The notes under the pieces are model-generated. The model was not told the origin of the DNA, did not search any database, and was given only the letters and a program-made list of their open reading frames with translations. A DNA stretch of 64,000 nt from Escherichia coli (GTDB taxonomy: Bacteria; Pseudomonadota; Gammaproteobacteria; Enterobacterales; Enterobacteriaceae), in assembly GCF_003018115.1 (NCBI RefSeq), contig NZ_CP027457.1; one strand, written 5' to 3'. Positions 54,927 through 64,000 of the stretch are shown here, one piece after another (position 1 is the first letter of the stretch; each line of letters starts with the position of its first letter). A program made the translations under genes and the position numbers.

Positions 54927-57900
54927 ATGATGAATAAATCCAATTTTGAATTCCTGAAGGGCGTCAACGACTTTACCTATGCCATCGCCTGTGCGGCGGA
55001 AAATAACTACCCGGATGATCCCAACACGACGCTGATTAAAATGCGTATGTTTGGCGAAGCCACAGCGAAACATCTTGGTCTGTTACTCAACATCCCCCCT
55101 TGTGAGAATCAACACGATCTCCTGCGCGAACTCGGCAAAATCGCCTTCGTTGATGACAACATTCTCTCTGTATTCCACAAATTACGCCGCATTGGTAACC
55201 AGGCGGTGCACGAATATCATAACGATCTCGACGATGCCCAGATGTGCCTGCGACTCGGGTTTCGCCTGGCTGTCTGGTACTACCGTCTGGTCACTAAAGA
55301 TTATGACTTCCCGGTGCCGGTGTTTGTGTTGCCGGAACGTGGTGAAAACCTCTATCACCAGGAAGTGCTGACGCTAAAACAACAGCTTGAACAGCAGGTG
55401 CGAGAAAAAGCGCAGAGTCAGGCAGAAGTCGAAGCACAACAGCAGAAGCTGGTTGCCCTGAACGGCTATATCGCCATTCTGGAAGGCAAGCAGCAGGAAA
55501 CCGAAGCGCAAACCCAGGCTCGCCTTGCTGCACTGGAAGCACAGCTCGCCGAGAAGAACGCGGAACTAGCCAAGCAGACCGAACAGGAACGTAAGGCTTA
55601 CCACAAAGAAATTACCGATCAGGCCATCAAGCGTACACTCAATCTTAGCGAAGAAGAGAGCCGCTTCCTGATTGACGCGCAACTGCGTAAAGCAGGCTGG
55701 CAGGCCGATAGCAAAACCCTGCGCTTCTCCAAAGGCGCGCGCCCGGAACCCGGCGTCAATAAAGCCATTGCCGAATGGCCGACCGGGAAAGATGAAACGG
55801 GTAATCAGGGCTTTGCGGATTATGTGCTGTTTGTCGGTCTCAAACCCATCGCGGTGGTAGAAGCGAAACGTAAAAATATCGACGTTCCCGGCAAGCTCAA
55901 TGAGTCGTATCGCTACAGTAAATGTTTCGATAATGGCTTCCTGCGGGAAACCTTGCTTGAGCACTACTCACCGGATGAAGTGCATGAAGCGGTGCCGGAG
56001 TATGAAACCAGTTGGCAGGACACCAGCGGCCAACAACGGTTTAAAATCCCCTTCTGCTACTCGACCAACGGGCGCGAATACCGCGCAGCGATGAAGACTA
56101 AAAGTGGCATCTGGTATCGCGACGTGCGTGATACCCGCAATATGTCGAAAGCCTTACCCGAGTGGCATCGCCCGGAAGAGTTGCTGGAAATGCTCGGCAG
56201 CGAACCGCAAAAACAGAATCAGTGGTTTGCCGATAATCCCGGCATGAGCGAGCTGGGCCTGCGTTATTATCAGGAAGATGCCGTCCGCGCGGTTGAAAAG
56301 GCAATCGTCAAGGGTCAACAAGAGATCCTGCTGGCGATGGCGACCGGTACCGGTAAAACCCGCACCGCAATTGCCATGATGTTCCGCCTGATCCAGTCCC
56401 AGCGTTTTAAACGCATTCTCTTCCTTGTGGATCGCCGTTCTCTTGGCGAGCAGGCGCTGGGGGCGTTTGAAGATACGCGTATTAACGGCGACACTTTCAA
56501 CAGCATTTTCGACATTAAAGGGCTGACGGATAAATTCCCCGAAGACAGCACCAAAATTCACGTTGCCACCGTACAGTCGCTGGTGAAACGCACCCTGCAA
56601 TCGGATGAACCGATGCCGGTAGCCCGTTACGACTGTATCGTCGTCGATGAAGCGCATCGCGGCTATATTCTCGATAAAGAGCAGACCGAAGGCGAACTGC
56701 AGTTCCGCAGCCAACTGGATTACGTTTCTGCCTACCGTCGTATTCTCGATCACTTCGATGCGGTAAAAATTGCTCTCACCGCCACCCCGGCGCTGCATAC
56801 GGTGCAGATTTTCGGCGAGCCGGTTTACCGTTACACCTACCGTACCGCGGTTATCGACGGTTTTCTGATCGACCAGGATCCGCCGATTCAGATCACCACC
56901 CGCAACGCACAGGAAGGGGTTTATCTCTCCAAAGGCGAGCAGGTTGAGCGCATCAGCCCGCAGGGGGAAGTGATCAACGACACCCTGGAAGACGATCAGG
57001 ATTTTGAGGTCGCCGACTTTAACCGTGGCCTGGTGATCCCGGCGTTTAACCGCGCCGTCTGTAACGAACTCACCAACTACCTTGACCCGACCGGGTTACA
57101 AAAAACGCTGGTCTTCTGCGTCACCAATGCCCATGCCGATATGGTGGTGGAAGAGTTGCGTACCGCGTTCAAGAAAAAGTATCCGCAACTGGAGCACGAC
57201 GCGATCATCAAGATCACCGGTGATGCCGATAAAGACGCGCGCAAAGTGCAGACCATGATCACCCGCTTCAATAAAGAGCGGCTGCCCAATATTGTCGTAA
57301 CCGTCGACCTGCTGACGACCGGCGTCGATATTCCGTCGATCTGTAATATCGTGTTCCTGCGTAAAGTACGCAGCCGTATTCTGTACGAGCAGATGAAAGG
57401 CCGCGCCACGCGCTTGTGCCCGGACGTGAATAAAACCAGCTTTAAGATTTTCGACTGCGTCGATATCTACAGCACGCTGGAGAGCGTCGATACCATGCGT
57501 CCGGTGGTGGTGCGCCCGAAGGTGGAACTGCAAACGCTGGTCAACGAAATTACCGATTCGGAAACCTATAAAATCACCGAAGCGGATGGCCGTAGCTTTG
57601 CCGAGCACAGCCATGAACAACTGGTGGCGAAGCTCCAGCGCATCATCGGCCTGGCCACGTTTAACCGTGACCGCAGCGAAACGATAGATAAACAGGTGCG
57701 TCGTCTGGATGAGCTATGCCAGGACGCGGCGGGCGTGAACTTTAACGGCTTCGCCTCGCGCCTGCGGGAAAAAGGGCCGCACTGGAGCGCCGAAGTCTTT
57801 AACAAACTGCCTGGCTTTATCGCCCGTCTGGAAAAGCTGAAAACCGACATCAACAACCTGAATGATGCGCCGATCTTCCTCGATATCGACGATGAAGTGG

Positions 57901-58439
57901 TGAGTGTAAAATCGCTGTACGGTGATTACGACACGCCGCAGGATTTCCTCGAAGCCTTTGACTCGCTGGTGCAACGTTCCCCGAACGCGCAACCAGCATT
58001 GCAGGCGGTGATTAATCGCCCGCGCGATCTCACCCGTAAAGGGCTGGTCGAGCTACAGGAGTGGTTTGACCGCCAGCACTTTGAGGAATCTTCCCTGCGC
58101 AAAGCGTGGAAAGAGACGCGCAATGAAGATATCGCCGCCCGGCTGATTGGACATATTCGCCGCGCTGCGGTGGGCGATGCGCTGAAACCGTTTGAGGAAC
58201 GTGTCGATCACGCGCTGACGCGCATTAAGGGCGAAAACGACTGGAGCAGCGAGCAATTAAGCTGGCTCGATCGTTTAGCGCAGGCGCTGAAAGAGAAAGT
58301 GGTGCTCGACGACGATGTCTTCAAAACCGGCAACTTCCACCGTCGCGGCGGGAAGGCGATGCTGCAAAGAACCTTTGACGATAATCTCGACAGCCTGCTC
58401 GATAAATTCAGCGATTATATCTGGGACGAGCTGGCCTGA
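54927..58439 (+). CDS. hsdR: Type I restriction enzyme R subunit HsdR (1170 aa)
   Basis: ORF track 1170 aa; helicase motif I ATGTGKT and DEAH box VVDEAHRG. Confidence 0.96.
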   Translation: MMNKSNFEFLKGVNDFTYAIACAAENNYPDDPNTTLIKMRMFGEATAKHLGLLLNIPPCENQHDLLRELGKIAFVDDNILSVFHKLRRIGNQAVHEYHNDLDDAQMCLRLGFRLAVWYYRLVTKDYDFPVPVFVLPERGENLYHQEVLTLKQQLEQQVREKAQSQAEVEAQQQKLVALNGYIAILEGKQQETEAQTQARLAALEAQLAEKNAELAKQTEQERKAYHKEITDQAIKRTLNLSEEESRFLIDAQLRKAGWQADSKTLRFSKGARPEPGVNKAIAEWPTGKDETGNQGFADYVLFVGLKPIAVVEAKRKNIDVPGKLNESYRYSKCFDNGFLRETLLEHYSPDEVHEAVPEYETSWQDTSGQQRFKIPFCYSTNGREYRAAMKTKSGIWYRDVRDTRNMSKALPEWHRPEELLEMLGSEPQKQNQWFADNPGMSELGLRYYQEDAVRAVEKAIVKGQQEILLAMATGTGKTRTAIAMMFRLIQSQRFKRILFLVDRRSLGEQALGAFEDTRINGDTFNSIFDIKGLTDKFPEDSTKIHVATVQSLVKRTLQSDEPMPVARYDCIVVDEAHRGYILDKEQTEGELQFRSQLDYVSAYRRILDHFDAVKIALTATPALHTVQIFGEPVYRYTYRTAVIDGFLIDQDPPIQITTRNAQEGVYLSKGEQVERISPQGEVINDTLEDDQDFEVADFNRGLVIPAFNRAVCNELTNYLDPTGLQKTLVFCVTNAHADMVVEELRTAFKKKYPQLEHDAIIKITGDADKDARKVQTMITRFNKERLPNIVVTVDLLTTGVDIPSICNIVFLRKVRSRILYEQMKGRATRLCPDVNKTSFKIFDCVDIYSTLESVDTMRPVVVRPKVELQTLVNEITDSETYKITEADGRSFAEHSHEQLVAKLQRIIGLATFNRDRSETIDKQVRRLDELCQDAAGVNFNGFASRLREKGPHWSAEVFNKLPGFIARLEKLKTDINNLNDAPIFLDIDDEVVSVKSLYGDYDTPQDFLEAFDSLVQRSPNAQPALQAVINRPRDLTRKGLVELQEWFDRQHFEESSLRKAWKETRNEDIAARLIGHIRRAAVGDALKPFEERVDHALTRIKGENDWSSEQLSWLDRLAQALKEKVVLDDDVFKTGNFHRRGGKAMLQRTFDDNLDSLLDKFSDYIWDELA

Positions 58440-58515: not shown

Positions 58516-60105
58516 ATGAACAATAACGATCTGGTCGCGAAGCTGTGGAAGCTGTGCGACAACCTGCGCGATGGCGGCGTTTCCTATCAAAACTACGTCA
58601 ATGAACTCGCCTCGCTGCTGTTTTTGAAAATGTGTAAAGAGACCGGGCAGGAAGCGGAATACCTGCCGGAAGGCTACCGCTGGGATGACCTGAAATCCCG
58701 CATCGGCCAGGATCAATTGCAGTTCTACCGTAACCTGCTGGTACATCTGGGCGCCGACAATCAAAAGCTGGTGCAGGCGGTGTTCCAGAACGTCAACACC
58801 ACCATTACCCAGCCAAAACAGTTGACCGAACTGGTCACAAATATGGATTCGCTGGACTGGTATAACGGTGCGCACGGTAAGTCGCGCGATGACTTCGGCG
58901 ATATGTACGAAGGGCTGTTGCAGAAGAACGCCAACGAAACCAAGTCTGGCGCGGGCCAGTACTTCACCCCGCGTCCGCTGATTAAAACCATTATTCATCT
59001 GCTGAAACCGCAGCCGCGTGAAGTGGTGCAGGACCCGGCAGCAGGTACGGCGGGCTTTTTGATTGAAGCCGACCGCTACGTTAAGTCGCAGACCAATGAT
59101 CTGGACGACCTTGATGGCGATACGCAGGATTTCCAGATCCACCGCGCGTTTATCGGCCTCGAACTGGTGCCCGGCACCCGTCGTCTGGCGCTGATGAACT
59201 GCCTGCTGCACGATATTGAAGGCAACCTCGACCACGGCGGCGCAATCCGTCTGGGCAACACTCTGGGTAGCGACGGCGAAAACCTGCCGAAGGCGCATAT
59301 TGTCGCCACTAACCCGCCGTTTGGCAGCGCCGCAGGCACCAACATTACCCGCACCTTTGTTCACCCGACCAGCAATAAACAGTTGTGCTTTATGCAGCAT
59401 ATTATCGAAACGCTGCACCCCGGCGGTCGTGCGGCGGTGGTGGTGCCGGATAACGTGCTGTTTGAAGGCGGCAAAGGCACCGACATTCGTCGTGACCTGA
59501 TGGATAAGTGTCATCTGCACACTATTCTGCGTCTGCCGACCGGTATTTTTTACGCGCAGGGCGTGAAAACCAACGTGCTGTTCTTTACCAAAGGCACGGT
59601 GGCGAACCCGAATCAGGATAAGAACTGCACCGATGATGTGTGGGTGTACGACCTGCGTACCAATATGCCGAGCTTCGGCAAGCGCACGCCGTTTACTGAC
59701 GAACATCTGCAGCCGTTTGAGCGGGTGTATGGCGAAGATCCCCACGGCTTAAGCCCGCGCACTGAAGGCGACTGGGAATTCGACGCAGAAAAAAGTGAAA
59801 TTGCCGACAGCGAAGAGAACAAAAACACCGACCAGCATCTGGCTACCAGCCGCTGGCGCAAGTTCAGCCGCGAGTGGATCCGCACCGCGAAATCCGATTC
59901 GCTGGATATCTCCTGGCTGAAAGATAAAGACAGCATTGACGCCGACAACCTGCCGGAGCCGGATGTATTAGCGGCAGAAGCGATGGGCGAGCTGGTACAG
60001 GCGCTGGGCGAACTGGATGCGTTGATGCGTGAACTGGGGGCGAGCGATGAGGCGGATGCACAGCGTCAGTTGCTGGAAGAAGCGTTTGGTGGGGTGAAGG
60101 AATGA
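58516..60105 (+). CDS. hsdM: Type I restriction-modification M subunit HsdM, N6-adenine methyltransferase (529 aa)
   Basis: ORF track 529 aa; motif IV NPPFG and SAM-binding region. Confidence 0.96.
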   Translation: MNNNDLVAKLWKLCDNLRDGGVSYQNYVNELASLLFLKMCKETGQEAEYLPEGYRWDDLKSRIGQDQLQFYRNLLVHLGADNQKLVQAVFQNVNTTITQPKQLTELVTNMDSLDWYNGAHGKSRDDFGDMYEGLLQKNANETKSGAGQYFTPRPLIKTIIHLLKPQPREVVQDPAAGTAGFLIEADRYVKSQTNDLDDLDGDTQDFQIHRAFIGLELVPGTRRLALMNCLLHDIEGNLDHGGAIRLGNTLGSDGENLPKAHIVATNPPFGSAAGTNITRTFVHPTSNKQLCFMQHIIETLHPGGRAAVVVPDNVLFEGGKGTDIRRDLMDKCHLHTILRLPTGIFYAQGVKTNVLFFTKGTVANPNQDKNCTDDVWVYDLRTNMPSFGKRTPFTDEHLQPFERVYGEDPHGLSPRTEGDWEFDAEKSEIADSEENKNTDQHLATSRWRKFSREWIRTAKSDSLDISWLKDKDSIDADNLPEPDVLAAEAMGELVQALGELDALMRELGASDEADAQRQLLEEAFGGVKE

Positions 60106-61430
60106 GTGCGGGGAAATTGCCAGAGGGGTGGGTTGAAACTCAATTAGAAAATATCGTTGATATTTTAGACTCAATGCGTGTCCCGGTTAATAATTCTGAG
60201 AGACAATCACGCATTGCAGGAAAAAAAGAAAATGAACTTTATCCCTATTTTGGTGCTACCGGTGAAGTCGGTAAAATTGATGATTATATTTTTGATGAAG
60301 AACTTGTTGCATTAGGTGAAGATGGTGTTCCTTTTTTTGATGGGCACAAAAATAAGGCTTATATGCTGTATGGTAAAACGTGGGTGAATAATCATGCTCA
60401 TGTAATAAGAGCTATCTCTGGACTAAGCCATAACAAGTATTTATGCCATTATCTTAACCAATTCGACTATCATGATTATGTAAACGGCGGGACCAGGCTT
60501 AAACTTACACAAGCGAATATGAGAAAACTACCTGTTAGTTTAGCGCCTCTCGCCGAACAAAAAATCATCGCAGAAAAACTCGATACGCTGCTGGCGCAGG
60601 TAGAGAGCACCAAAGCACGTCTTGAGCAAATCCCACAAATCCTGAAACGTTTTCGTCAGGCGGTGTTGGCTGCTGTTGTTAATGGAAAATTATCAAAGAA
60701 CACGAAGCAATGGGAAATATACTTATTAAAAAATCTTTGTACTAGCATTTCAGATGGCGATCATCAGGCTCCTCCAAAATCAGAAACAGGAGTGCCTTTC
60801 CTCGTAATCTCCGATGTTAATAAAGGGGTGATTGATTTTGATAATGTAACCAGATGGGTGCCTGAATCTTACTACCAATCGCTAAAAGAAATTAGAAAAC
60901 CATGCCAATATGATATTTTATATACAGTTACAGGTTCTTATGGAATACCTGTAATTGTTAACGACAATAAACCATTTTGTTTCCAGCGACATATTGCCAT
61001 CATCAAGCCAAACAGAAATTTAATTGATCATAGATTCTTAGCTTTCTATTTAGAATCACCACAAATTCTCAAACATGCAAGTGATGTTGCTACTGGGACC
61101 GCACAAAAAACAGTATCGCTGTCGAGTCTCCGAAATTTTGAGATCTCTGTTCCCCCTTTAAAAGAACAACACGAAATCGTTCGTCGCGTCGAGCAACTCT
61201 TCGCCTACGCCGACACTATTGAAAAACAGGTCAACAACGCCCTGGCCCGCGTCAACAACCTGACGCAATCCATTCTGGCAAAAGCGTTCCGTGGTGAACT
61301 CACCGCCCAGTGGCGGGCCGAAAACCCGGAATTGATCAGCGGAGAAAACAGCGCCGCCGCGTTGCTGGAGAAAATCAAAGCTGAACGCGCAGCCAGCGGG
61401 GGTAAAAAAGCCTCGCGTAAAAAATCCTGA
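60102..61430 (+). CDS. hsdS: Type I restriction-modification specificity subunit HsdS (442 aa), Type IA framework with non-EcoKI target-recognition domains
   Basis: ORF track; ATGA overlap with hsdM; conserved N-terminus MSAGKLPEGWV, central LAPLAEQKIIAEKLDTLLAQVESTKARLEQIPQILKRFRQAVL and C-terminal PPLKEQHEIVRRVEQLFAYADTIEKQVNNALARV blocks flank two AT-rich variable segments. Confidence 0.9.
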   Translation: MSAGKLPEGWVETQLENIVDILDSMRVPVNNSERQSRIAGKKENELYPYFGATGEVGKIDDYIFDEELVALGEDGVPFFDGHKNKAYMLYGKTWVNNHAHVIRAISGLSHNKYLCHYLNQFDYHDYVNGGTRLKLTQANMRKLPVSLAPLAEQKIIAEKLDTLLAQVESTKARLEQIPQILKRFRQAVLAAVVNGKLSKNTKQWEIYLLKNLCTSISDGDHQAPPKSETGVPFLVISDVNKGVIDFDNVTRWVPESYYQSLKEIRKPCQYDILYTVTGSYGIPVIVNDNKPFCFQRHIAIIKPNRNLIDHRFLAFYLESPQILKHASDVATGTAQKTVSLSSLRNFEISVPPLKEQHEIVRRVEQLFAYADTIEKQVNNALARVNNLTQSILAKAFRGELTAQWRAENPELISGENSAAALLEKIKAERAASGGKKASRKKS

Positions 61431-61562
61431 ACATTATTTTCTGGCGCACCTTTCCGGTGCGCTTTTAATTATTTCACGCCAATCATAATTCACGCAAATA
61501 TATTTAAATCACTCCAGAAATTGCCCATTTTATTCTATTTTTAGCTGGACTTTCCCTGTATT

Positions 61563-61582
61563 TACTGATGATATATCCAGGT
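61563..61582 (+). promoter_or_regulatory. LexA (SOS) box upstream of symE
   Basis: TACTGATGATATATCCAGGT: CTG-N10-CAG with AT-rich centre, about 75 bp upstream of the symE ATG. Confidence 0.65.
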
Positions 61583-61589
61583 ATTTAGC

Positions 61590-61670
61590 GCGGTGCGGAT
61601 GTGCGCCAACACACCCGCACCGCTCATCACAATCACTATTTATGGAGAATAGTAATCATGACTGACACGC
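61590..61670 (-). ncRNA. symR: SymR antisense sRNA overlapping the symE 5' UTR and start codon (boundaries approximate)
   Basis: position opposite the symE translation initiation region; 9-bp-stem hairpin GCGGTGCGG / CCGCACCGC at 61590-61623; minus-strand TAGAAT-like -10 at 61671-61676. Ends are inferred, not read directly. Confidence 0.3.
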
Positions 61671-61999
61671 ATTCTATTGCACAACCGTTCGAAGCAGAAG
61701 TCTCCCCGGCAAATAACCGTCAATTAACCGTGAGTTATGCGAGCCGCTACCCGGATTACAGCCGTATTCCCGCCATCACCCTGAAAGGTCAGTGGCTGGA
61801 AGCCGCCGGTTTTGCCACCGGCACGGCGGTAGATGTCAAAGTGATGGAAGACTGTATTGTCCTCACCGCCCAACCCGCCGCCGCCGAAGAGAGCGAACTG
61901 ATGCAGTCACTGCGCCAGGTGTGCAAACTGTCGGCGCGTAAACAAAAGCAGGTGCAGGAGTTCATTGGGATGATTGCGGGTAAACAGAAAGTCGCCTGA
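61658..61999 (+). CDS. symE: SymE, SOS-induced toxin-like protein (113 aa)
   Basis: ORF track; start at internal ATG giving [38 protein letters not shown] 10 bp upstream. Confidence 0.9.
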
Positions 62000-62007
62000 T
62001 ACATTGA

Positions 62008-62031
62008 CCCGGTAGCGCCAGTGCTACCGGG
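62008..62031. terminator. hairpin between convergent symE and the downstream nuclease gene, probable bidirectional terminator
   Basis: CCCGGTAGC-GCCAGT-GCTACCGGG followed by TATTATT. Confidence 0.5.
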
Positions 62032-62045
62032 TATTATTCGCCGCG

Positions 62046-64000
62046 TTATACCAACGCGCTCTCCATCTGTTTTTCAAATGCCTGACGAATTAATCCCATA
62101 ATATAAGGAAGTTGTGCGAGGTCGCTGAAACCAATTTCCACATCGCCATTGCCCCATCGCCCAACATTTGTCACATCTTTGGCAATACCTTTCGGATCGA
62201 CCAGTTCATGAAACTGCATATTAAGCGACAATCGCAGTCGGCTTTTTTGCGGCACAACATCAACAAAATTCGTTTCAGCTTTAAACGCAATATAGAGCTT
62301 CAATACTTCCTGCGTGATCCCTGCGTCCAGGCGCATAACTTCATCGCTAAGATGATCGAATAACACCCGGCTATGCGAACCATCAGCAAGAAAAGGATAA
62401 TCACTCAGGCTGTAACTGGTTTTGTTTTCCGGCTGCCCCCGATAAACAGCTAAAACCTCTTCAGGAAGAGAAGGCGCTTGCCAGACCTGAACCGCGAGAT
62501 CGGCCAGACGATCGGCTCGGGCGTGAATGGCGGCTTCATCCCATTTTTCGCACTGTCCAAGACCGATATTCAAATAAAGCGGGCTATGCTTAAAGCCGTC
62601 TTCAATATCGCGTTTTTCCGCGAAAGGTCTGTCACTGTAGCGGGAGTTATAGCGCGTTAAAGTGAGATTCCCCAACGTATGTAACAGTTCTTTATGCACA
62701 CGCTGCCAGTCGCTTCCCAGCTCTTCGCGCCATTTAGCCGACAAATTTTCGTTCTGCGGCATAATATGTTCAATCGTAAACTCTTCCACGCGCTCTCTGC
62801 GTTTATCGTTTTCCAGTCGTCGTAACCAGTAGCTGCGACTACGGAAGTTATAGAGATCGCGAACTTTTAATTCCCGTTTAAATTCATCATCGTTGGGGAA
62901 ACGACGATATGAAGGTAGATTCAAAAAATGTACCTGAATACTTTCCAGATAATTTTCTTTATTAATAACTTTATAAAAAGTGGCAAATGTCTTGTTCAAA
63001 GAATTTGTCGGAATTGCACATACTGCACGGCGGAAAACATAAGATTCAATTAAACGAATTATGCTCAGGAAATCTTCGTGAGACAAATCGTCATTTTTAT
63101 AGTCATGATAAAGCGCCAGTAAGAAAGGATACGCCACATCAACCTTTAACTCGCGCAAATCCTGAAAAGCCGTAGCAAGCGATTTGTCACTTTCTTTTCC
63201 CAATGCCATTGCACAGTAATACTCCGCGTAGATGTGAATATCTTCAACCAGCCGATCTACGCCTTTTTCAGCAACACTCTGGCTGCGGGCATGGAGTTTA
63301 AATGCCTCATAGACTTCATCTGTCCGAGGGATCTCCCCCGTTTTTACCGTCAGATAATGACGCATAAAACTGTCAAAATATTCGCTGTAACCTTGCTGAC
63401 CAAAAGCGACTTCCATTGGACGCCAGTGATCTTCATACAACCGGGTTTGATGCTCTGGTTCGAGGCCCATCAGAATAAAATTGCGCACCAGATCGGCCTG
63501 ACTTAACGCCTTACCGGTGGAGTTCATACTTTCAAAAATCAGTTGCGGATTATCCTGACCACGATTAAGCGCCACATCGACAATTAATAACTTTGCTAAC
63601 CCACGACATAAGGGGATCAAGTCATCACCGAGTTTGGCAATTTGCTCATCAAAGAAAGTAAAGTTTTCCATTATTCGATGGGAATAGTTTTCTGGCATTG
63701 GTCTTTGTTTTATTAACGCCAGTAAACTGTCTTTATCAGTCTCGGTCAGCAGTAATTTAAAACCTTTCTCGCCGGACTCATAAGGATTGAGCAAATAATA
63801 ATTACGCAATTTCATTGCCGAAAAGCCATCAAAAACTTCGTCTTCGCCAAGATGGCGCGATAAAGCCTCAATCAGCAACATTGCGGTCGTCAGCCGCTGC
63901 TGACCATCAATGACCAGCAACGGAGAAATACCAGAAACCTGATACAATCCCTGCTCTATATAAACAACCGAACCGATAAAATGCGCTGATATATCGTCAC
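62046..64000 (-). CDS. DUF262/DUF1524 (GmrSD-family) nuclease, candidate Type IV modification-dependent restriction enzyme; N-terminus lies beyond the window end
   Basis: ORF track 633 aa from an internal TTG, but the frame stays open to position 64000 (...DDISAHFIGSVVYIEQGLYQVSGISPLLVIDGQQRLTT); DUF262 hallmarks DGQQRLTT and IFESMNSTGKALSQADLVRNF; C-terminal DUF1524 His-Me-finger region EHIMPQNENLS...LHTLGNLTLTRYN; visibly AT-rich. Confidence 0.8.
   Translation of the reverse strand, partial: DDISAHFIGSVVYIEQGLYQVSGISPLLVIDGQQRLTTAMLLIEALSRHLGEDEVFDGFSAMKLRNYYLLNPYESGEKGFKLLLTETDKDSLLALIKQRPMPENYSHRIMENFTFFDEQIAKLGDDLIPLCRGLAKLLIVDVALNRGQDNPQLIFESMNSTGKALSQADLVRNFILMGLEPEHQTRLYEDHWRPMEVAFGQQGYSEYFDSFMRHYLTVKTGEIPRTDEVYEAFKLHARSQSVAEKGVDRLVEDIHIYAEYYCAMALGKESDKSLATAFQDLRELKVDVAYPFLLALYHDYKNDDLSHEDFLSIIRLIESYVFRRAVCAIPTNSLNKTFATFYKVINKENYLESIQVHFLNLPSYRRFPNDDEFKRELKVRDLYNFRSRSYWLRRLENDKRRERVEEFTIEHIMPQNENLSAKWREELGSDWQRVHKELLHTLGNLTLTRYNSRYSDRPFAEKRDIEDGFKHSPLYLNIGLGQCEKWDEAAIHARADRLADLAVQVWQAPSLPEEVLAVYRGQPENKTSYSLSDYPFLADGSHSRVLFDHLSDEVMRLDAGITQEVLKLYIAFKAETNFVDVVPQKSRLRLSLNMQFHELVDPKGIAKDVTNVGRWGNGDVEIGFSDLAQLPYIMGLIRQAFEKQMESALV

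Follow-up and report, generated by a model that had tools for sequence, protein, structure and literature searches.

The symE/symR locus of Escherichia coli K-12 (yjiW/RyjC; PMC1891008; RF01809; PF08845) is a type I toxin-antitoxin module. DNA damage induces its symE promoter, which carries a LexA site (Kawano 2007, PMC1891008). LexA binding and derepression have been reported for K-12 yjiW/symE (Fernandez de Henestrosa 2000, as cited in PMC1891008), and symE is among the SOS genes listed in PMC6590174. SymR, the antisense RNA, has been described in K-12 as a two-hairpin RNA, and is abolished by mutating the −10 element of a promoter embedded in symE (Kawano 2007, PMC1891008). SymR is stable and present in about 10-fold excess, and SymE is degraded by Lon. 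When K-12 cells lack SymR, the level of SymE protein increases more than 7-fold and that of the mRNA ~3-fold (PMC1891008). The activity of SymE is disputed: as outlined in PMC11894785, RNA cleavage (Kawano 2007) stands against DNA binding and nucleoid condensation (Thompson 2022). In the summary of Thompson 2022 given there, DNA binding was independent of sequence and RNase activity was not detected. The surrounding immigration control region has also been reviewed (EcoSal Plus 2025, PMC12707154). According to that review, some E. coli have a GmrSD homologue in place of the McrBC locus, and symE symR is among the toxin-antitoxin systems that accompany the Type IA, IB and ID hsd families of the region.

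The DNA analysed here is a 64,000-nucleotide stretch of an E. coli contig, referred to below as the window. The features of interest are collected in Table 1. A reading made from the sequence alone had proposed that the window contains symE, a LexA box and an antisense SymR RNA, and that this module is kept although the gene to its right is unlike that of K-12. Both proposals are borne out. All three elements are there and all are intact, and the module is 94% identical to that of K-12 at the level of DNA. The presence, intactness and conservation of every sequence element, and the selection acting on the minus-strand RNA, were computed here. The region is very probably orthologous to the toxin-antitoxin module symE/symR (type I) of K-12, and no sequence evidence to the contrary was encountered. 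As in K-12, the module sits directly 3′ of an IA-family hsdS gene in the immigration control region, with the same intergenic spacing (228/227 bp). It likewise encodes a 77-nt, two-hairpin SymR that spans the Shine-Dalgarno sequence and start codon, with the symR −10 element inside symE. The SymE protein has 113 amino acids in both cases and is 94% identical, the window protein having seven amino acid differences.

Membership of the SymE (AbrB/MazE-like) toxin family is indicated by two profile matches. The protein scored 75 bits against Pfam SymE_toxin PF08845 (cutoff 29) and 225 bits against the NCBIfam equivalog NF010128, 'endoribonuclease SymE' (cutoff 132). The RefSeq symE annotation coincides exactly with the open reading frame in Table 1. 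Over 61431-62045, the window and the E. coli F8111-1SC3 chromosome (NZ_CP024269.1) share 100% identity, and symE is annotated at the same place in that record. The hsdM gene of the window is 99.9%, not 100%, identical to the same record; hence, the window departs from it somewhere in hsdM. The symE/symR locus is thus intact, ordinary and already known. For this window the module matters little, being a textbook locus with symE already in RefSeq at the same coordinates.

Table 1. Positions of the symE/symR module and its flanking features in the window.
Feature	Position	Strand	Details or basis
hsdR, IA family	54927-58439		
hsdM, IA family	58516-60105		
hsdS, IA family	60102-61430		
Intrinsic terminator of IA-family hsdS	61443-61463	+	8-bp stem then TTTTAATTATT; −14.6 kcal/mol, z −5.0
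Left edge of conserved module and presumed symE promoter region	61527-61562	+	Homology limits, alignments
LexA (SOS) box TACTGATGATATATCCAGGT	61563-61582	.	Best 20-mer in window; 1 base off K-12 box
SymR antisense RNA, 77 nt	61587-61663	−	Rfam RF01809, fold, 13-sequence alignment
SymR 3′ stem-loop, 15 bp including two G.U pairs	61590-61623	−	Fold energy, compensatory changes
SymR 5′ stem-loop	61626-61662	−	Fold; covers symE Shine-Dalgarno and start codon
symE Shine-Dalgarno GGAG	61644-61647	+	10 nt before ATG; within SymR-complementary region
symE coding sequence, 113 aa and stop	61658-61999	+	RefSeq, Pfam, NCBIfam, K-12 identity
symR promoter −10 hexamer TAGAAT	61671-61676	−	Inside symE codons 5-7, 7 nt upstream of SymR 5′ end
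10-bp hairpin between converging symE and GmrSD genes	62007-62032	.	−20.2 kcal/mol plus, −19.6 kcal/mol minus
Single-chain GmrSD-family Type IV gene	62046-64000, on to 64139	−	Neighbour, outside module

The island is the immigration control region, in the order mrr, hsdR, hsdM, hsdS (IA family), terminator, symE and a convergent GmrSD-family gene. The hsdS terminator bounds the symE transcription unit on the left and lies outside the module. At the same site, the IB and ID contexts have different hairpins. Conserved sequence starts at about 61527-61537, just past the family-specific terminator of the upstream operon. Consistent with this, megablast homology in the IB and ID contexts begins at window position 61527 or 61533 (query position 97 or 103). 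On the right, the hairpin at 62007-62032 probably acts as a terminator shared by symE and the GmrSD gene, and is part of the GmrSD-type right flank. It was found in 4 of 4 GmrSD contexts, and the mcrB and yjiS contexts have other hairpins after the symE stop codon. In yjiS contexts the recombination breakpoint falls inside the last ~25 nt of symE. A 112-aa SymE variant occurs where an ID operon is combined with yjiS (L004, 7132-7470; L005, 7126-7464), and ends ...SSKTPR, not ...AGKQKVA.

RefSeq divides the GmrSD-family neighbour into a 387-aa coding sequence and a separate DUF262 'pseudogene'. We rejected the reading of this gene as a pseudogene; it is one unbroken open reading frame of 697 aa (L001, 9616-11709), with Pfam matches to GmrSD_N, GmrSD_C and DUF5655, and with PADLOC matches. 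The split looks like an artefact carried over from the two-gene form of O157. In E. albertii (L018) the GmrSD version is called as 698 aa.

To place this arrangement among its relatives, 5,426 complete E. coli genomes were surveyed, with all counts taken as totals rather than as pairings within each genome. The symE module was present in 2,872 of them. To its right, the junction with GmrSD was found in 1,285 genomes, that with mcrB in 590 and that with yjiS, lacking a Type IV gene, in 919; together, these three junctions account for 2,794 genomes. The restriction gene beside symE had been described as swapped in the sequence-only reading. This is correct in comparison with K-12 but not in general, since GmrSD is the most frequent right-hand neighbour. 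Indeed, the K-12 layout is in the minority given the numbers with GmrSD or with no Type IV gene. Subtraction puts the pairing seen here, an IA hsd operon with GmrSD, at roughly 917 − 590 = about 330 genomes. It is the rarer pairing, GmrSD being mostly paired with IB operons.

The left side was constant. IA hsdS preceded symE in 917 genomes, IB hsdS in 974 and ID hsdR in 969. The IB junction was counted with a shorter query; a longer one that included the variable part of hsdS gave only 357. Hence, in 2,860 of the 2,872 genomes with symE, the module lies directly after a Type I hsd operon, at a distance of ~225 bp. The corresponding hsdM genes were found in 928 (IA), 963 (IB) and 951 (ID) genomes. 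Because the junction counts almost equal these hsdM counts, the totals show symE and the island-type Type I operon to be present or absent together in E. coli; the Type IV slot, by contrast, varies. We also considered, and rejected, the view that symE belongs to the framework of the island, as yjiA and yjiN do; the gene is missing from about 47% of E. coli genomes, and the counts of island-type hsdM match those of symE. A by-product of the census is therefore the tie between symE and its left-hand Type I operon, the right-hand Type IV slot varying freely.

The same unit was found beyond E. coli. A Type I operon, a gap of ~215-228 bp, and then symE with SymR also occur in Kosakonia, Pantoea, Salmonella, Citrobacter, Pseudocitrobacter, Kluyvera, E. 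albertii and Erwinia. The genes to the right of symE in these relatives are unrelated to one another. In a Kluyvera contig (L016, 1-7777), mcrBC is upstream of an ID-family hsd operon and a gene for a TauD-family dioxygenase follows symE. Thus, a Type IV gene need not stand on the symE side of the island. The exception among these loci is a Kosakonia-like contig (L008, 1-8342; Logan SRR1749592), which keeps symE/symR in the absence of an hsd operon. In place of hsd it has genes with SMC_N-like, Lactamase_B-like, DUF8370 and DUF7480 matches, which may form a further defence system, and upstream of symE it still carries what is left of an IA-type hsdS terminator.

Adjacency of this kind invites a functional explanation. 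SymE/SymR could be tied to the neighbouring restriction systems as an SOS-linked backup, as had been suggested from the sequence, as a restriction-alleviation factor, or as an addiction module that stabilises hsd. We consider such a tie unlikely. The near-equality of junction and hsdM counts across three operon families, and the repetition of the arrangement in seven other genera and in E. albertii, speak for it, and an association with restriction-modification loci was noted by Kawano 2007 (PMC1891008) and by the 2025 review (PMC12707154). Yet shared history could suffice to explain the adjacency. Cassettes may recombine at the module as a constant linker, each flank having its own terminator hairpin. 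Furthermore, the Kosakonia-like contig retains symE/symR in the absence of hsd genes, and SymE has no match to the PADLOC defence models. A link to the Type IV gene specifically fails, with 919 genomes having none beside symE. If there is a link to restriction at all, the census indicates the Type I operon as the partner, rather than the Type IV gene. We know of no experiment that links SymE to restriction.

A stronger form of the same idea would make SymE/SymR a dedicated accessory of Type I operons in the enterobacterial immigration control region, rather than a free-standing toxin-antitoxin pair. We regard this as speculative and give it a low probability. Its appeal lies in the fixed spacing of ~225 bp, together with the reported SOS-induced, DNA-coating product, because of which SymE could shield unmodified sites. 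If so, unmodified chromosomal sites could be protected from Type I cleavage after DNA damage, in an SOS-dependent branch of restriction alleviation. Alternatively, SymE/SymR could be an addiction element that stabilises the hsd cassette. The near-perfect Type I adjacency may be functional or only historical.

We turn to the RNA that opposes symE. An antisense SymR had been expected across the symE start, and the minus strand of 61587-61663 matches RF01809 with 95.3 bits (gathering score 61; E 2.9e−19), all of model positions 1-77 being covered. On the symE mRNA its complement covers 5′ UTR, Shine-Dalgarno sequence and start codon, and extends into the coding sequence as far as the sixth nucleotide. 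It folds into two hairpins with a predicted energy of −43.7 kcal/mol (z −7.7). The locus therefore encodes, in cis, a ~77-nt two-hairpin antisense RNA over the symE ribosome-binding site and start. In comparison with K-12 there are three one-sided substitutions in the 5′ hairpin, between the Shine-Dalgarno sequence and ATG of symE. These swap among A-U, G.U and G-C pairs or close a mismatch, so that pairing is kept or improved, and the predicted fold of SymR is more stable than that of its K-12 counterpart (−43.7 compared with −37.8 kcal/mol).

The putative symR promoter lies within the symE coding sequence. The hexamer TAGAAT is invariant at +14 to +19 of symE in 14 of 14 loci, and its position suggests that it is the equivalent of the −10 element mutated by Kawano 2007. 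A scan of 61300-62200 for σ70 consensus promoters flagged neither the symE nor the symR promoter. In the case of symR this is because the −35 element is poor.

The 3′ stem-loop of SymR deserves closer attention, as it is visible on both strands. The sequence-only reading had recognised a hairpin with a 9-bp stem at 61590-61623 and assigned it to the symE 5′ UTR. The hairpin is real; GCGGTGCGG (61590-61598) pairs with CCGCACCGC (61615-61623), and the plus-strand fold has an energy of −23.4 kcal/mol (z −4.5). On the minus strand the energy is −28.8 kcal/mol. The minus-strand stem reaches 15 bp because two G.U pairs extend the hairpin; these become C.A mismatches on the plus strand. We compared the strands using an alignment of the 77-nt SymR from 13 loci: the IA, IB and ID contexts of E. 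coli, E. albertii, Kosakonia, Pantoea, Salmonella, Citrobacter, Pseudocitrobacter, Kluyvera and Erwinia. For the SymR structure, 97.2% of pair positions were standard on the minus strand over the 13 sequences (eight named genera). Six pairs had compensatory double changes, all in the 3′ hairpin, where they make up six of its 15 pairs. Conversely, the mirrored structure on the plus strand was 77.4% paired in the same sequences, with several positions that never pair. The difference was seen for each helix: from minus to plus strand, pairing fell from 96.9% to 71.3% in the 5′ stem-loop and from 97.4% to 83.6% in the 3′ helix.

Plus-strand pairing was thus not kept across the relatives, as it would be for a hairpin acting in cis. 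The assignment to symE as primarily a 5′-UTR feature did not hold, the hairpin being the mirror of the SymR 3′ stem-loop. It could still be argued that the hairpin acts mainly on the symE mRNA itself, as a 5′-UTR stabiliser or attenuator. The stability of the plus-strand fold would suit such a role, as would the predicted fold of the leader, where the hairpin forms beside a second helix containing the Shine-Dalgarno sequence, and, read on the plus strand, the mirrored helix still contains five pairs with double changes. However, 2 of the 15 pair positions essentially never pair on that strand, with C.A in place of the minus-strand G.U, and RF01809 gives only 20 bits and four non-standard pairs there. 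We therefore think a mainly cis-acting hairpin improbable, slightly more so than a tie to restriction. Because pairing is retained on the minus strand and not on the plus strand, the structure is selected in SymR, and any role in the symE leader is secondary. This strand-resolved evidence that selection acts on the conserved hairpins in SymR, rather than in the symE leader, is a second by-product of the analysis.

Upstream of the 3′ end of SymR lies the proposed control element for symE. A LexA box of the form CTG-N10-CAG had been claimed at 61563-61582. In TACTGATGATATATCCAGGT, CTG occupies 61565-61567 and, after ten bases, CAG occupies 61578-61580. The bare CTG-N10-CAG pattern was rejected as evidence, there being 26 occurrences in the window where 13.9 were expected. 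Hence, the full 20-mer was scored, using a heterology-index matrix derived from an informally compiled set of 27 E. coli LexA boxes. By this measure the claim is upheld: TACTGATGATATATCCAGGT is the best site in the 64 kb, with a heterology-type score of 9.0 compared with 11.6 for the next best and 2.1-11.7 for the 27 training boxes. Shuffling the window gave a site as good in 7 of 200 cases, and shuffling the 227-bp intergenic region did so in 4 of 5000. TACTGATGATATATCCAGGT is therefore an imperfect CTG-N10-CAG palindrome with an A/T-rich centre that scores in the range of the training boxes. It is a box of moderate quality, having 6 mismatches to the 20-bp consensus.

The box stands at −95 from the ATG, as here, or at −98 in the Salmonella/Citrobacter/Kluyvera group, and this placing holds in 14 of 14 loci (nine genera). 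The CTG and CAG cores are both retained in 12 of the 14. In the remaining two, which are Kosakonia-type loci (L008 and L009; 7906-7925, 95 nt before symE), TTG replaces CTG and the scores are poor, at 12.3 and 14.6. SOS control of symE may be weakened in these two loci, where SymR and its promoter are intact. Between the left edge of the module and the box, CTGG(A)CTTT at 61545-61553 is conserved across genera, in the segment presumed to contain the symE promoter.

The K-12 yjiW/symE box is TACTGATGATATATACAGGT; the window box matches it at 19 of 20 positions, with C for the A of K-12 at position 15. That this change inactivates the box and places symE outside SOS control is very improbable: the window box does score slightly worse than that of K-12 (9.0 compared with 8.2), but its CTG and CAG cores are intact, and the C variant is the common form, the exact 20-mer being found in 7 of the 14 loci, including those of O157:H7, E. 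albertii and Pseudocitrobacter. A C at position 15 occurs in many proven LexA boxes, for example those of uvrB, ruvAB and uvrD.

Taking the module as an orthologue of K-12 symE/symR, and by analogy with the K-12 experiments, LexA repression, SymR action, Lon turnover and SymE toxicity would be expected in this strain. LexA bound at its box would hold symE transcription off until DNA damage elicits the SOS response. The promoter in the first symE codons would meanwhile produce the stable 77-nt SymR, running from 61663 down to 61587. As an exact complement of the symE leader, with its Shine-Dalgarno sequence, and of the start codon, SymR would block translation and modestly lower the level of the mRNA. 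Lon protease would clear whatever SymE is produced. At a high level, SymE, with its MazE/AbrB fold, would halt growth; RNA cleavage was blamed first, and later non-specific DNA binding that condenses the nucleoid.

Among known systems, K-12 symE/symR is the closest, and one difference lies to the right of the module. Whereas the right-hand neighbour in K-12 is a co-directional mcrBC, here it is a convergent single-chain GmrSD gene. Of the other SOS-controlled type I pairs of E. coli, tisB/istR-1 and hokE, mentioned by Kawano 2007 (PMC1891008), share the logic of a LexA box on the toxin mRNA and a constitutive small RNA that blocks translation. However, their toxins are small membrane peptides, whereas SymE is a soluble 113-aa protein of the AbrB/MazE fold. 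IstR-1 is encoded beside its target and not opposite it; SymR is encoded opposite symE. Unlike these pairs, symE/symR combines a stable antitoxin RNA with a toxin that is an unstable Lon substrate. For the island as a whole, the Eco94GmrSD-type layout described in the review of the immigration control region (EcoSal Plus 2025, PMC12707154) is exactly that of the window, and nothing essential differs.
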